A stretch of DNA of 64,000 bases from a phage. Of the stretch, positions 2,271-9,404 are shown piece after piece; position 1 is the stretch's first letter, and every line of letters starts with the position of its first letter. The notes below the pieces were generated by a model. That model did not search any database, was not told the origin of the DNA, and saw nothing but the letters and a program-made list of their open reading frames with translations. The DNA is taken from sequence record PZ347775.1; one strand, written 5' to 3'. Made by a program: the position numbers and the translations under genes.

Positions 2271-2300
2271 ATAGTACCACGGAAAAACATGGATGTAAAC
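2271..2300 (-). promoter_or_regulatory. T4 early-type promoter (TTTACA, 17 bp, TACTAT)
   Basis: Minus strand -35/-10 hexamers with 17-bp spacer. Confidence 0.5.
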
Positions 2301-2437
2301 AGTTTTGTGAAAAAATTTTAAAAAGTTTTAGGGAATTCTAGGGAAGGGATGGGCAATTAAAGGATAGGATAATATATTATAAAGGGTATAAACTAAATGA
2401 TGCCTAGAGAGGCGCGGAAAGGCCTAGATACCAAAAA

Positions 2438-2458
2438 GCCCCAACCTTTTGGTCGGGG
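2438..2458 (-). terminator. rho-independent terminator hairpin (GCCCCAACC..GGTCGGGG) with U-run
   Basis: Hairpin followed by T-run on the minus-strand transcript, just downstream of ORF 2468-2941; near-identical copy at 2992-3015. Confidence 0.5.
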
Positions 2459-2467
2459 TTAAGAATG

Positions 2468-2941
2468 TTATTTGATTTGTTTAGCAGACCAAATGCGGTC
2501 TTTAATAATTTTTTGGATGTCTTCAACATACTCAAGAGAGTGAACATGTGGATTATCTTTGAAACTATAGGCACGGGCTAACTTTTGGCCTTCGGTTTTG
2601 ATTACTAAAAGCTCTTTAAGGATAGCTTCATACTTAGCGATAATTCCTTTAACAATATTTTTTTCTTGTGTAGCTTTAGGATCTGCTTTAGGAGCAGGTT
2701 TACCCGAAGCCTTTGCAAAAGCAGCACCAGTAGCAACTAAACTTTTCCAGGCCATACTAACCGCATTTCCCGTAAATCCTTCGGCTTTCATATCACGAGC
2801 AAATTGGAATCGTGATTCATCGGAAGCATCTTTATAGGAATATTTACCCGCGGCAATGGCAGCTTTTGCAACAGCTTGAATTTCAGTGCTAGATGCTTCA
2901 TTTAACACCGCTTCATTTAAAAATTGAGCATATGATTTCAT
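2468..2941 (-). CDS. internal-protein-like protein with capsid targeting sequence (157 aa)
   Basis: N-terminus MKSYAQFLNEA matches the T4 internal-protein CTS pattern MK(T/S)(Y/F)xEF(I/L)xEA; SD AGGAAATAAG; late promoter upstream. Confidence 0.6.
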   Translation of the reverse strand: MKSYAQFLNEAVLNEASSTEIQAVAKAAIAAGKYSYKDASDESRFQFARDMKAEGFTGNAVSMAWKSLVATGAAFAKASGKPAPKADPKATQEKNIVKGIIAKYEAILKELLVIKTEGQKLARAYSFKDNPHVHSLEYVEDIQKIIKDRIWSAKQIK

Positions 2942-2977
2942 CTTATTTCCTGTTTTAATTCGTGGTTTTAATATACT

Positions 2978-2985
2978 TATTTATA
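2978..2985 (-). promoter_or_regulatory. T4 late promoter TATAAATA
   Basis: Exact TATAAATA on minus strand about 40 nt upstream of ORF 2468-2941. Confidence 0.5.
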
Positions 2986-2991
2986 CTAAAA

Positions 2992-3015
2992 AGCCCCAAC
3001 CTTTCGGTCGGGGCT
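2992..3015 (-). terminator. rho-independent terminator hairpin, second copy of the 2438-2458 element
   Basis: AGCCCCAACCTTTCGGTCGGGGCT followed by T-run on minus-strand RNA. Confidence 0.5.
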
Positions 3016-3059
3016 AAGCCTTGCGGCAACCTTGTCGGGGTTCCACCTGCTAAGGCAAG

Positions 3060-3125
3060 TGTTTGTACGAAACGCCGGGATTCGAACCCGGTTATTAAGC
3101 AGTTGACGCTACTTAATATTTTTAA
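3060..3125 (-). other. tRNA-like T-arm hairpin (CCGGG-TTCGAAT-CCCGG) plus adjacent hairpin; candidate stable RNA or tRNA remnant
   Basis: Perfect T-stem/T-loop consensus on minus strand, but no acceptor or anticodon arm could be folded. Confidence 0.25.
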
Positions 3126-3326
3126 AAGGCCATATCTCGACCATATCCGAACGTTCCGTCAAAAACGCTACTCGGCTTACGGCAAAGATATTTCCTCGAA
3201 TCGATAATTCTGTGCGCCGTTTCTGCTGTGATGTAAGGGGATATTAATAAATCATAAAGATTTATTAAGACCAGTCCTTACACAGGGAACATCAGTCCGA
3301 CGACTTACCGGTAGCGACCCGGTTTC

Positions 3327-3677
3327 TTAATATTCTTTTAAAGCATCAATCTGTTCACGACGTTTACGCCATAAATCAATTGCTTCATACGCAGATTCAG
3401 CATTTCGAATTGGACGGCATTTATATAAAGACTCGTGATTTTGATATTGCGTAGATAACGTAATTTTATCTAAAAGGTCTTTACGTTCAAAGTATTCGTA
3501 ACCATCTAAGCCAAATGAACGATTTTTGAGAAATTGCCAATGACCATATTCGTTTTCGACATAAACATAATCCGCGTGTTGATAAAGCAAATTAATTACA
3601 CGTTCAGAAATAACAGTGTCATTGTGATTAAAATAAAATGTTAAATCATGAACTACTAAATAAACATTACCTTTCAT
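3327..3677 (-). CDS. hypothetical protein (116 aa) directly downstream of tRNA-Arg
   Basis: ORF with SD GAGGAAAAT before ATG. Confidence 0.5.
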   Translation of the reverse strand: MKGNVYLVVHDLTFYFNHNDTVISERVINLLYQHADYVYVENEYGHWQFLKNRSFGLDGYEYFERKDLLDKITLSTQYQNHESLYKCRPIRNAESAYEAIDLWRKRREQIDALKEY

Positions 3678-3693: not shown

Positions 3694-3769
3694 TGGTCGA
3701 GGCAGTAGGGATCGAACCTACGACCTAGGACTTAGAAGGTCCTTGCTCTTCCTTCTGAGCTATGCCCCG
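3694..3769 (-). tRNA. tRNA-Arg (anticodon UCU)
   Basis: Manual cloverleaf: acceptor CGGGGCA/TGCCTCG, D-stem GCTC/GAGC, anticodon stem AGGAC/GTCCT, loop CTTCTAA, T-arm GTAGG-TTCGATC-CCTAC, CCA encoded. Confidence 0.85.
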
Positions 3770-3773
3770 TAAT

Positions 3774-3849
3774 TGGGGTGACCGATGGGAGTCGAACCCA
3801 TGACTACGAGAATCACAATCTCGAGTTCTACCAACTGAACTACGGCCAC
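3774..3849 (-). tRNA. tRNA-His (anticodon GUG); no G-1 encoded
   Basis: Acceptor GTGGCCG/CGGTCAC, anticodon stem CGAGA/TCTCG, loop TTGTGAT, T-arm ATGGG-TTCGACT-CCCAT, discriminator C, CCA encoded. Confidence 0.8.
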
Positions 3850-3963
3850 ATTAATACCTACTCCAACAATCAAGATGTCTTCACACGAAATTAAGAGAAG
3901 AGTGATCAGTTCAACCCCGATAATCGCGTCAAGTAGATATTAATGTGACAGTTGTCACAAATT
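3850..3963 (-). other. 114-nt spacer inside tRNA array with hairpin TGTGACA..TGTCACA; candidate small stable RNA or tRNA remnant
   Basis: Non-coding gap between tRNA-His and tRNA-Asn, much longer than other inter-tRNA spacers; contains a palindrome. Confidence 0.25.
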
Positions 3964-4038
3964 TGGCGGACGTGATAGGATTCGAACCTATAACCAATCG
4001 CTTAACAGGCGATCGCTCTGCCATTGAGCTACACATCC
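3964..4038 (-). tRNA. tRNA-Asn (anticodon GUU)
   Basis: Acceptor GGATGTG/CACGTCC, D-stem GCTC/GAGC, anticodon stem ATCGC/GCGAT, loop CTGTTAA, T-arm ATAGG-TTCGAAT-CCTAT, CCA encoded. Confidence 0.85.
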
Positions 4039-4042
4039 AAAT

Positions 4043-4129
4043 TGGTGGGGAGTGATGGAGTCGAACCACCCGAGTCGCAATGACAATGGATTTACAGTCC
4101 ACACCGCTACCTCTACGGGATAACTCCCC
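4043..4129 (-). tRNA. tRNA-Tyr (anticodon GUA), long variable arm
   Basis: Acceptor GGGGAGT/ACTCCCC, anticodon stem GTGGA/TCCAT, loop CTGTAAA, long variable arm, T-arm GGTGG-TTCGACT-CCATC, CCA encoded. Confidence 0.8.
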
Positions 4130-4142
4130 TTAATTCTTAATT

Positions 4143-4217
4143 TGGTGGCCCTGGGTGGAATTGAACCACCATCTGGCGATTATGAGTCGCTTGCTTGAAC
4201 CTTCCAGCTACAGGGCC
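4143..4217 (-). tRNA. tRNA with CAU anticodon (elongator Met or lysidine-type Ile)
   Basis: Acceptor GGCCCTG/CAGGGCC with G1-C72 (so not initiator-like), anticodon loop CTCATAA, T-loop TTCAATT, CCA encoded. Confidence 0.75.
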
Positions 4218-4218
4218 T

Positions 4219-4294
4219 TGGTGCTGATTGACGGAATCGAACCGCCGACCTTCTCATTACAAGTGAGTTGCTCTACCTACTGAGCTAAATCAGC
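4219..4294 (-). tRNA. tRNA-Thr (anticodon UGU)
   Basis: Acceptor GCTGATT/AATCAGC, D-stem GCTC/GAGC, anticodon stem ACTCA/TGAGA, loop CTTGTAA, T-arm GGCGG-TTCGATT-CCGTC. Confidence 0.85.
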
Positions 4295-4299
4295 AAAAC

Positions 4300-4389
4300 T
4301 GGCGGAGGCGATAGGATTTGAACCTATGAGTCGCCGGAGCGACTGCCGGTTTTCAAGACCGGTGCATTAAACCACTCTGCCACGCCTCC
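4300..4389 (-). tRNA. tRNA-Ser (anticodon UGA), long variable arm
   Basis: Acceptor GGAGGCG/CGCCTCC, anticodon stem CCGGT/ACCGG, loop CTTGAAA, long variable arm, discriminator G. Confidence 0.85.
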
Positions 4390-4391
4390 AG

Positions 4392-4465
4392 TCTCCATAC
4401 AAGGATTTGAACCTTGGACCTCCTGATCCCAAATCAGGCGCTCTACCAAACTGAGCTACACGGAG
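4392..4465 (-). tRNA. tRNA-Pro (anticodon UGG); CCA not encoded; 2 nt from tRNA-Ser
   Basis: Acceptor CTCCGTG/TATGGAG (two G-U pairs), anticodon stem CCTGA/TCAGG, loop TTTGGGA, T-arm CAAGG-TTCAAAT-CCTTG. Confidence 0.8.
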
Positions 4466-4475
4466 TAAATTAAAT

Positions 4476-4549
<74 letters not shown>

Positions 4550-4554
4550 AAATT

Positions 4555-4641
4555 TGGTGCGAGAAGTGGGACTCGAACCCACAAGGAAATCATTCCGCAG
4601 CATTTTAAGTGCTGTGCCTTTACCAATTTGACCATTCTCGC
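4555..4641 (-). tRNA. tRNA-Leu (anticodon UAA), long variable arm
   Basis: Acceptor GCGAGAA/TTCTCGC, anticodon stem AGCAC/GCTGC (one mismatch), loop TTAAAAT, T-arm GTGGG-TTCGAGT-CCCAC. Confidence 0.85.
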
Positions 4642-4642
4642 G

Positions 4643-4715
4643 CTGGGAATAAAGGACTCGAACCTTTGCATCCTGGAATCAAAATCCAGTGCCTTACCAA
4701 CTTGGCTAATTCCCA
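4643..4715 (-). tRNA. tRNA-Gln (anticodon UUG); CCA not encoded; 1 nt from tRNA-Leu
   Basis: Acceptor TGGGAAT/ATTCCCA, anticodon stem CTGGA/TCCAG, loop TTTTGAT, T-arm AAAGG-TTCGAGT-CCTTT, discriminator G. Confidence 0.85.
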
Positions 4716-5693: not shown

Positions 5694-5722
5694 TTTATTC
5701 TCCTCAGTAGTTGATAGGGTAA

Positions 5723-5752
5723 TAATATCACTACCCCATCTAAAAGTAAACG
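5723..5752 (-). promoter_or_regulatory. T4 early-type promoter (GTTTAC, 17 bp, TATTAT)
   Basis: Minus strand hexamers with 17-bp spacer; heads the operon running through the tRNA array. Confidence 0.5.
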
Positions 5753-5761
5753 GTTTATAAA

Positions 5762-6070
5762 CTATTTTATTCCGCGTGATGCAATTGTGTTCTGCCGTTT
5801 AACACCAGTTTGTTTAAAGTCATGATTGTCGATTTGATCGGTACGAGCAACACCGAATGATGATTTAATCTTAGCTTTAGATCCTTTAGTTATAGAAATA
5901 AACATCTCGGAAGCCCCTTTCTTAAAGTCCGAGGCGATTACTTCAACGCCGTTCTTAGCAAGTGACCTCAGAATTGCCTCCGCGTACTCATCATCAAGAC
6001 TCGCCTGAGTATTAATAACGAATGTCTTTGGTGCAGTCGCTTCATTGATAAATTCTTGATATGTTTTCAT
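5762..6070 (-). CDS. ipI: internal protein I-like protein with capsid targeting sequence (102 aa from MKTYQEF)
   Basis: N-terminus MKTYQEFINEA is the classical CTS; gene sits at the T4 ipI position next to 57B; own early promoter. Confidence 0.7.
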   Translation of the reverse strand: MKTYQEFINEATAPKTFVINTQASLDDEYAEAILRSLAKNGVEVIASDFKKGASEMFISITKGSKAKIKSSFGVARTDQIDNHDFKQTGVKRQNTIASRGIK

Positions 6071-6104
6071 TTTGATTTCCATTTAGTTTTGTTTTGATAG
6101 GGTA

Positions 6105-6134
6105 ATAGTATCACAACTAAACCACCGTGTAAAC
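6105..6134 (-). promoter_or_regulatory. T4 early-type promoter (TTTACA, 17 bp, TACTAT)
   Basis: Minus strand hexamers with 17-bp spacer and TG extended -10. Confidence 0.55.
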
Positions 6135-6137
6135 AAT

Positions 6138-6410
6138 TTATTTTAAATAAATTGCATATTTTTTATAACCAGCCGTCTCGTGACGCAGACCTTTTTCATT
6201 AGCAAAGCGTTCAATATTATTAATTTGATTCTGATCAAGTTCTGAAATATCAAATACAAAAAAGTTTCGTTTATTTCCTAACGTTACATGATTCGTCAAA
6301 TCAATGTTATAAAGATGATTTATATTATCAATCATAGTCTTAACAGATTTGCTAATTTTTACTTCTTCATTAAGAGCAGATTCAACGATAAACTCTTTGA
6401 AAGTTTTCAT
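6138..6410 (-). CDS. CTS-bearing internal-protein-like protein (90 aa), unrelated in sequence to the ipI-like neighbour
   Basis: N-terminus MKTFKEFIVESA matches CTS pattern; SD AGGAAAATAAA; own early promoter. Confidence 0.6.
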   Translation of the reverse strand: MKTFKEFIVESALNEEVKISKSVKTMIDNINHLYNIDLTNHVTLGNKRNFFVFDISELDQNQINNIERFANEKGLRHETAGYKKYAIYLK

Positions 6411-6440
6411 TTTATTTTCCTAATTAATTTTGATGAGGTA

Positions 6441-6470
6441 ATAGTATCACTACCTCATCAACGTGTAAAC
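6441..6470 (-). promoter_or_regulatory. T4 early-type promoter (TTTACA, 17 bp, TACTAT) with inverted repeat around the -10
   Basis: Minus strand hexamers with 17-bp spacer; GATGAGGTA/TACCTCATC flank the -10. Confidence 0.55.
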
Positions 6471-6482
6471 AACTTTGTGAAA

Positions 6483-8579: not shown

Positions 8580-9404
8580 TTAGATATTTGACCAGACTTT
8601 GTTTGCAGAGAAACGTTTTCCTTTTGAAACGAACTGCTGAAGTGGCATTAACACAACGTTCGCCCAGTCTTTCGGGGCGATTTCAACAAGGCTACCCATA
8701 ATATTACCAGGTATATATGCCTTAATCATTTGGTCTGCACCCCTAAATCCTTTCACTTGACTCCAATCAATTTTTAATTTCGTTTTATTAGTAATAGTAG
8801 GTGTATTCGAATATTGCTTTAAAAGCTCTTCTAGAAATTGCTGACGAGCTTTAGGTGGAATATAGTGCAAGTTCAATCCGTACATTAAATTATGTTTACC
8901 TAAACCAAGGTAAATTATCAAAGGAAATTTATCCCAGTAAGGAAGAGTTTCCTTGTGTTTAGCATCATAAGCAAAAGCATATATTCGTCCCGGCTGCGGG
9001 CGAACAACTTTATGTCCTTTTACCTGCTTAATAGTTTCAGCAAACCACTTTCTGGTTTTATTATTAATTGCTGCACCTTCATTACGAATTTTATCACGCA
9101 ATGTTTGCCTGAATGAATTTATCATAAGCAGTTGTCTTTCTTGCTTATTGAGTTTATTCATTGGTTTTGATTCAAGCTTTTGAATCTTTTCAGCCGTTTT
9201 AATTCCTGAAGCATATTTTGACATTGCCGAAGTAAACGTAGAGTATTTGATTCCTCTTTCTTCAGCAAATTGCTTTCCTGTCATTCCTTTTGCTTTGGCC
9301 TTTCTGTATTCAAGACCTATCTGAATCCATTTCTTTTCATTTAATGATTGCTTAACCTTTGGAACTTGGGGAGTGCTTTCATTAATTATTTGAAAAATAG
9401 CCAT
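8580..9404 (-). CDS. 2: gp2 DNA end protector (274 aa)
   Basis: Length and position as T4 gp2. Confidence 0.9.

Follow-up and report, generated by a model that had tools for sequence, protein, structure and literature searches.

Why should a T4-like phage carry, in the gap between e.8 and rnaC where T4 itself has no gene, a small open reading frame (ORF) that begins like a T4 internal protein and is bracketed by two nearly identical terminators? The question arises from sequence record PZ347775.1, of which a stretch of 64,000 nucleotides (here called the window) was analysed. The window belongs to the RB18/AR1 group of Tequatrovirus; its closest match is Escherichia phage ECO07P3 (99.9%), and AR1 and RB18 stand at about 95%. 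The ORF in question, 2468-2941 on the minus strand, corresponds to AR1 ar1_137, fD1 g140, fPS-90 g136c and RB32ORF132c in related phages, and the labels given to it in public sources are always "hypothetical", "uncharacterized" or "phage protein". The reading that we favour, with moderate confidence, is that it encodes a previously unannotated internal protein of the T4 type, that is, one packaged in the head and injected, most probably directed against a first-line host defence.

A conserved gene with an internal-protein-like leader

The ORF is a real gene under purifying selection. Its protein was found by tblastn in 512 phage records, with one copy in each; in 336 of them the identity is at least 95%, a further 100 or so fall at 60-80%, and Klebsiella phages give partial matches. 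Compared with five diverged alleles, the whole gene has a ratio of nonsynonymous to synonymous divergence (dN/dS; Nei-Gojobori) of about 0.1, and its C-terminal half one of 0.04-0.10. A reading in which 2468-2941 is not a gene, with an antisense ORF at 2598-2837 on the plus strand, was ruled out by the codon-level conservation of the minus-strand frame.

It is the leader that ties this gene to the internal proteins (IPs). In IPIII of T4, the first 10 residues suffice for head targeting, even of foreign proteins; residues 4 and 7 are important to targeting, as are residues 8 and 10 to processing, and the prohead protease gp21 cuts after Glu in the motif L/I-x-E (PMC9026906, a review of work from the Black laboratory). 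The leader of the ORF agrees at all four mapped positions (Y4, F7, L8 and E10, with A11 next), and the pattern MKxYxxF is common to the ORF, T4 IPII and IPIII, and AR1 Ip4. The gp21 motif is present twice, as L8-N9-E10/A11 and L13-N14-E15/A16 (the slash marking the predicted cut), and the sole further L/I-x-E in the protein lies at E110. The second L-N-E stems from a tandem duplication of five residues (FLNEA-VLNEA, codons 6-15, 2897-2926), and the 153- and 154-residue alleles, which are without the duplication, have a single site. A similar second site (ES-ALNE-E) is seen in an unrelated gene of the window's ipI locus (6138-6410), and the 205-residue protein of a related locus (L017) reads FLNESVLNEA.

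A regular expression for this leader fits only 3 of the 497 candidate Met starts in the window, namely, the ORF and two ORFs of the ipI locus (5762-6070 and 6138-6410), and these two match PHROGs annotated as "internal head protein". The leader and its L-x-E site are retained by family members down to about 36% identity, with K2 and F7 conserved in at least 90%. Cleavage would leave a mature form of 142-147 residues, for which we compute a mass of 15.5-16 kDa, an isoelectric point (pI) of 9.5-9.6 and no cysteine; the pI values of T4 IPI, IPII and IPIII and of Ip4 are 8.9-9.5. The first-pass annotation of this DNA had proposed a capsid targeting sequence (CTS) of the internal protein type, and the proposal holds up on the four mapped positions, the gp21 rule, and the small, basic mature protein. 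The processed N-terminal peptides are predicted to be AVLNEASSTEIQAVAK for a cut after E10 and ASSTEIQAVAK for a cut after E15; an uncleaved N terminus would read SY[A/T]QFLNEAVLNEASSTEIQAVAK, the K2-tryptic peptide being SYTQFLNEAVLNEASSTEIQAVAK.

Behind the leader, the AlphaFold model (pLDDT 71) is all helical, with a four-helix N domain at about residues 18-71, a disordered linker rich in Pro, Ala and Lys (residues 76-87, KPAPKADPKA), and a long helical hairpin at 88-154. PHROGs places the protein in phrog_2280 ("unknown function"), which also takes in leader-bearing proteins of 187, 205 and 177 residues encoded at the same locus in other phages. These have the same plan of leader, N domain, linker and helical tail, even where BLASTP finds little. 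In three further proteins, from Yersinia phage fHe-Yen9-01 and from Klebsiella phages (P0010, P0011 and P0013), the leader and N domain are kept at about 50-58% identity and the C-terminal half is different and longer. They show that phrog_2280 has undergone shuffling at the level of domains.

Table 1. Features of the region between e.8 and rnaC, with positions in the window (a slash within the leader marks a predicted gp21 cut)
Feature	Position	Strand	Remarks
Coding sequence, 157 residues, 17.2-kDa precursor, phrog_2280	2468..2941	-	Starts MKSYAQFLNEAVLNEASS
CTS-like propeptide, codons 1-15, MKSYAQFLNE/AVLNE/A	2897..2941	-	Two L-N-E gp21-type sites
Shine-Dalgarno sequence AGGAAA	2946..2951	-	4 nt upstream of ATG; read directly from the sequence
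T4-type late promoter TATAAATA	2978..2985	-	2 nt past the T-run of the upstream terminator; 36 nt before ATG
Direct repeat, copy 1	2428..2463	-	The gene's own terminator: stem-loop 2458 to 2439, CCCCGACC-AAAA-GGTTGGGG, then CTTTTTGG
Direct repeat, copy 2	2983..3018	-	Terminator of the tRNA/rnaD/rnaC operon: stem-loop 3015 to 2992, AGCCCCGACC-GAAA-GGTTGGGGCT, then TTTTT
e.8 homologue, 87 residues	1964..2227	-	Conserved downstream neighbour; anchor and divergence control
Sigma-70-like early-type promoter of e.8, TTTACA-17-TACTAT with TG	2271..2299	-	Downstream of the cassette
rnaC homologue (T4 species 1 RNA)	3066..3204	-	Approximate position, placed by eye using the T4 annotation

A repeat-bounded unit and its alleles

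The gene is flanked by near-identical hairpins, as had been noticed at first pass, and these prove to be parts of a longer direct repeat of 36 nt, 92% identical between its two copies and spaced by 555 nt (Table 1). Its 24-mer AAAGCCCCAACCTTTYGGTCGGGG occurs exactly twice in the window (2435-2458 and 2990-3013) and found 0 matches in 100 dinucleotide-preserving shuffles, and the window holds no further copy of the repeat even at 3 mismatches. The folding energies are -15.1 kcal/mol for copy 1 and -20.3 kcal/mol for copy 2. Intrinsic-terminator scoring recognised both copies on the minus strand only. In minus-strand RNA each forms a G+C stem (CCCCGACC/GGTTGGGG) closed by a 4-nt loop and trailed by a U-run, with a G.U wobble in the stem that on the plus strand becomes an A.C mismatch; the hairpins are therefore terminators of minus-strand genes.

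The late promoter assigned to the gene by the first-pass annotation also stands. The motif TATAAATA is weak when taken alone, with 9 copies on the minus strand against about 4.5 expected; it gains its significance from its position right after the T-run and from its recurrence in eight related loci, where it lies 34-46 nt upstream of the homologous ORF. The annotators of fPS-90 independently arrived at the same layout, i.e., terminator, late promoter, g136c, terminator, g135c, terminator, early promoter, and e.8. No sigma-70-like site was found at 2941-3015 on the minus strand, and the gene has a late promoter only, with a strong terminator shielding it from the operon upstream. With this arrangement, the hairpin at 3015-2992 would stop transcripts of the tRNA/rnaD/rnaC operon, and the TATAAATA next to it would restrict expression of the ORF to the late period, during prohead assembly. 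The terminator behind the gene, which copies the upstream hairpin, would block read-through into e.8, which has an early promoter of its own.

T4 displays the alternative state of the locus. It has a single hairpin, the counterpart of copy 2, immediately downstream of rnaC, and no gene before e.8. Its sequence passes, exact to the base, from the left flank of copy 1 into the right flank of copy 2, so that the 555-bp unit, comprising late promoter, gene and one terminator, constitutes an exact repeat-bounded polymorphism. About 79 records match a probe for the T4 junction without interruption (i.e., the site is empty), and in most of the remaining 525 or so the probe is split. Presence and absence among T4-like genomes are thus bounded exactly by the repeat, and the locus is not invariant.

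It might be argued that the two terminators are independent and merely alike and that the T4 difference arose by a route unrelated to the repeat. Mosigvirus-like loci do have an unrelated hairpin, AAAGCCCCGTCTGGGGCTTT, as the downstream terminator of the same gene, and the downstream breakpoint of allelic exchange (see below) lies inside the ORF rather than in the hairpin. However, the 92% identity over 36 nt includes flanks outside the stem (ATAC..., ...TAAG), the single T4 copy joins both flanks with no base extra or missing, and an additional gene in SH-2-type phages is likewise joined at the GGG(G/C)CTTTT ends of terminators. We therefore regard independent origin as very improbable. The bracket of identical hairpins, as distinct from the gene, is specific to one lineage.

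That additional gene, found in 165 records of the SH-2 type, lies between the 157-residue gene and e.8, encodes a leader-bearing protein of 187 residues, and has its own, different terminator. Its product begins MKTYAEFLTE/A (2063-2626 of L003, Shigella phage SH-2; also in L014, L015 and L021), and upstream of it there is only a near-match to the late promoter, AATAAATA. Since the 187-residue gene is frameshifted in G29, where it is annotated as two ORFs, and the 157-residue gene is truncated in some phages, both are dispensable.

The first-pass picture of a module swapped in needs one correction, in that the gene is neither rare nor a recent arrival. In all ten e.8-anchored IMG/VR loci (e.8 identity of 80-100%), the slot is occupied by one or more phrog_2280 genes with the leader, preceded by a terminator-TATAAATA junction. 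Because phrog_2280 fills this slot in every related locus examined, the diverged Mosigvirus-like loci included, its presence is probably ancestral. On grounds of parsimony, the empty site of T4 is then probably a deletion between the repeats; the 36-nt terminator repeat would permit clean loss of the whole unit, leaving the T4 state.

Where the gene is present, its alleles have been exchanged. The e.8 protein of one related locus (L012) is 100% identical to that of the window, and yet the gene has a synonymous divergence (dS) of 0.88 against 0.087 for e.8. In a sliding-window comparison with L012, the drop in identity, from 98% to 66%, coincides exactly with the upstream hairpin and promoter. 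Over most of the ORF the value stays at 50-85%, and it recovers to 94-98% at about 2525, roughly 20 codons ahead of the stop and not at the downstream hairpin. The same island is seen in an independent pair (L014 and L015), where the 187-residue gene and both flanks are 90-100% identical. A diverged gene within near-identical flanks indicates old alleles that have moved between young backgrounds. The breakpoints are the terminator and promoter upstream and the conserved 3' end of the ORF downstream. Of the supposed exchange of a module between two hairpins, then, the replacement and the upstream breakpoint are real, but the downstream breakpoint sits in the ORF's 3' end. Several deeply diverged alleles would in this way be shuttled by recombination between otherwise near-identical genomes. 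A cross-genus transfer of the 187-residue neighbour, which we had suspected from identities of 98% versus 75%, was dropped because the flanks are equally similar and it is the 157-residue gene that forms the divergent island.

The layout recalls the PeSL/PmSL cassettes of T4-type phages (Arbiol et al. 2010, PMC2839356; Comeau et al. 2014, PMC4122927). In both, a composite of stem-loop and promoter borders an accessory gene in a hyperplastic region, and repeats bound the insertions and deletions (indels) that set close relatives apart; in the present case, terminator repeats hold the junctions of T4, the window and SH-2 alike. The differences are that the promoter is early or middle in PeSL cassettes and a late TATAAATA here, that only the stem-loop part is duplicated here, and that PeSLs are dispersed, whereas the present hairpin has two copies in 64 kb, the downstream one serving as no breakpoint in the allele comparisons. 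The idea that this hairpin is itself a dispersed mobile element was rejected, since only 6 IMG/VR stretches match it and all but one are the same locus. An exact 23-nt match at 8609-8631 of an otherwise unrelated viral contig of 251 kb from IMG/VR (L009) lies between unrelated ORFs; chance is an unlikely cause. PeSL-like elements do occur elsewhere in the window, at its ipI locus, where three 48-nt units (5709-5756, 6092-6139 and 6428-6475; 69-81% identical) bracket the two ip genes on the minus strand (5762-6082 and 6138-6410) in the classical PeSL fashion. These units contain an early-type promoter, GTTTACA...GTGATACTAT, and a further repeat, of 40 nt (6041-6080 and 6381-6420), consists of the leader and ribosome-binding region of each gene.

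Possible packaging, processing and target

Experimental evidence on a homologue of the protein comes from the Yersinia phage fD1 (HE956711 = NC_027353, phiD1), which has a window-type locus and whose g140 product is 98% identical to the ORF protein. In ultracentrifuge-purified fD1 particles analysed with LC-MS/MS, g140 was marked as a "PPAP" (PMC8309999, Supplementary Table S3) at the strict threshold, which calls for 2 or more peptides and a mean spectral count no lower than 2 (dataset PXD026812). Its neighbours g138 and g139 (e.8) were not so marked, and under "similar protein expressed by T4" the entry for g140 is "No" (PMC8309999). Because the PPAP set has nonstructural members, the result establishes expression and copurification with particles and is not proof of encapsidation. 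The fPS-90 paper contains no published proteome.

One could therefore suppose that the protein is a late cytoplasmic one that never enters the head, that its leader is an inherited 5' module, and that the particle hit reflects contamination from the lysate. The many clearly nonstructural proteins in the fD1 set would be in keeping with this, as would a promoter type unlike that of canonical ip genes and a body unrelated to any proven IP. We nevertheless think it distinctly unlikely. Every critical leader residue is kept in family members down to about 36% identity, a conservation not easily accounted for unless targeting and cleavage are under selection; the first 10 residues of IPIII are sufficient to package foreign proteins; and the immediate neighbours of g140 went undetected in the same particles. 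If the protein is instead packaged, as we favour, MKSYAQFLNE would act as a capsid-targeting sequence and dock it on the scaffolding core, and gp21 would trim the leader after E10 and/or E15 to leave a basic, helical protein of 15.5-16 kDa in the head. The protein would then be ejected with the DNA and would neutralise a first-line defence, by analogy a modification-dependent, type IV nuclease resembling GmrSD.

Besides IPI, IPII and IPIII of T4, the T-even phages possess a polymorphic series running from Ip4 to Ip10 and beyond (Repoila et al. 1994; Mullaney and Black 1996; Bair et al. 2007; Silas et al. 2025). The T4 IPs and the ORF protein have in common a leader of the form MK(T/S)(Y/F)x(E/Q)F(I/L)xE, an L/I-x-E site, small size, basic charge, and a body unrelated to that of other IPs. 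Their genes, too, are alike in being nonessential (the ORF gene is absent from T4), in occupying hypervariable loci, and in having allelic classes, tandem paralogues and bracketing regulatory repeats. They differ in locus, which is e.8-rnaC here and the ipI locus (57B-trna.4) or the ipII/ipIII locus (denV-e) there, and in family, phrog_2280 standing against phrog_2667, phrog_7673 and phrog_3155 ("internal head/virion protein"). The leader of the ORF also differs in having L at position 8 and, in the window allele, a duplicated LNEA site.

It is from the T4 proteins that an anti-defence role for the ORF protein becomes plausible, by analogy. Ip1, Ip2 and Ip3 each inhibit a distinct GmrSD (type IV) enzyme and share the leader only, with no homology to one another (PMC12373910); T4 IPIII acts on ECOR17. 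The structurally characterised GmrSD inhibitor IPI* is a 76-residue alpha/beta protein, whereas the ORF protein is predicted to be all helical and to have two domains. What the two have in common is a presumed delivery route and a presumed class of function.

Several observations weigh against our reading. First, T4 ipI, ipII and ipIII, AR1 Ip4 and the two ipI-locus genes of the window all have an early-type promoter (GTTTACA-N17-TAnnAT) and no TATAAATA within 110 nt upstream; with its late promoter only, the ORF gene is evidently not regulated like canonical IPs. Second, its body offers no likeness to a known inhibitor. As had been expected from the first-pass annotation, which recognised no domain in it, Pfam gave nothing above threshold; Foldseek with the model found nothing informative in the PDB (best E = 1.2) and in BFVD only the protein's own family. 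A profile search of 1.84 billion representatives returned 14 hits, all of them members of the phage family or low-complexity matches. Homology of the body to known IPs was sought and rejected, since BLASTP against T4 IPI, IPII and IPIII and AR1 Ip4 matched the leader only; in neither BLASTP nor the Foldseek search of the PDB did any likeness to Ip1, Ip2 or Ip3 extend beyond the leader. Third, positive selection was not signalled, the pairwise dN/dS values being 0.04-0.34 in every region, with dS often saturated. Fourth, the PPAP list has low specificity: it comprises 113-137 of 277 gene products, DenV, lysozyme, NudE and rIIA included, in addition to 672 host proteins (PMC8309999). The fD1 search was, moreover, fully tryptic and hence blind to processing of the leader. 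Finally, when Silas et al. set ip4-10 against 15 GmrSD groups there were no reproducible hits; the ORF gene may or may not have been among ip4-10. With regard to the second of these points, the lack of mutual homology among Ip1-3 means that likeness of sequence or fold does not define the function of a GmrSD inhibitor. As for the last, the failure of Ip4-10 to give reproducible GmrSD hits means that the target of the ORF protein could lie elsewhere.

Some of the same features would suit a packaged internal protein with a structural or physical job and no specific host target, such as a component of the prohead core, or a basic protein serving the packaged DNA as counter-ion or organiser. A pI of 9.5, the long helical hairpin and the flexible Lys/Pro/Ala linker all fit such a role, as do the strong purifying selection (particularly in the C-terminal half, with its dN/dS of 0.04-0.10) and a late-only expression like that of true core proteins, and T4 manages without the gene, as a dispensable filler would predict. 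Against this, all three T4 IPs were once deemed fillers and are now specific GmrSD inhibitors, and deep allelic classes in near-identical backgrounds, together with tandem paralogues, fit target-driven diversification better. A structural role consequently seems to us unlikely, and an injected protein directed against a host defence remains the reading that we prefer.

Genomic surroundings and implications

By comparison with annotated T4 and AR1, the order of genes on the minus strand is tRNA cluster, a 116-residue ORF, rnaD, rnaC, the ORF cassette (2428-3018), e.8, e.7, e.6 and e.5. The rnaD and rnaC homologues together span about 3066-3326 (rnaD, about 3211-3326), and no Rfam entry was found for either. 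The early promoter before e.8 was predicted in the same place by the annotators of fPS-90. In phage G29, the rnaC region is labelled by its annotators as a 94-nt tRNA-Lys(ttt). The T4-like phage BW-1, which carries the same e.8-rnaC locus with the 187-residue gene included, acquired one convergent single-nucleotide polymorphism in rnaD in all lines when evolved on ECOR34 (PMC12685909). The 116-residue ORF (3327-3677, minus strand; MKGNVYLVVHDL...) equals AR1 ar1_139 and separates tRNA-Arg from rnaD; since the two are immediate neighbours in T4, this ORF is another indel within the same hyperplastic stretch. The tRNA cluster (3694-4715) has 11 genes (Arg, His, Asn, Tyr, Met/CAU, Thr, Ser, Pro, Gly, Leu and Gln), compared with 8 in the T4 annotation. 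It is without a homing endonuclease of the segB type, segD lying inside the AR1 cluster and segB in that of T4.

It is established that polymorphic, CTS-bearing Ips form an injected anti-restriction arsenal and that cassettes may be bounded by regulatory repeats. What appears, against the sources consulted, to be new is the family as an Ip candidate, the locus, and a bracket of terminator and late promoter in place of PeSL early-promoter units, although an earlier mention in Repoila et al. 1994 is possible. Two distinct loci are cited for the T4 ip genes (PMC12373910), and the e.8-rnaC locus is distinct from both. A broader, more tentative proposal, to which we give rather less than even chances, is that the e.8-rnaC gap is a third, unrecognised internal-protein locus of the Tevenvirinae. 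It would be strictly late and populated by a single modular family, phrog_2280, made up of CTS leader, variable N domain, Pro/Lys linker and conserved helical hairpin. The deeply diverged alleles of this family, which also has tandem paralogues, would represent specificity classes of injected inhibitors, acting on defences outside those met by Ip1-3 and possibly not of the GmrSD type.

In 2025, the T4 internal proteins Ip1-3 were recast from "mysterious head fillers" into injected, highly specific inhibitors of type IV restriction, and most other Ips still have no known target. The family described here is present in about 500 Tequatrovirus and Mosigvirus genomes, among them AR1, RB18, RB33, RB51, several BASEL phages, and the Yersinia phages fD1 and fPS-90. 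Its carriers thus include model phages and candidates for therapy, and T4, being without the gene, offers a natural null for gain-of-function tests. The terminator and late-promoter repeats at this locus do what the early-promoter repeats of PeSLs do at other ip loci. Recognition of the family as an Ip would add a testable determinant of host range, and a third hypervariable ip locus, to the biology of these phages.

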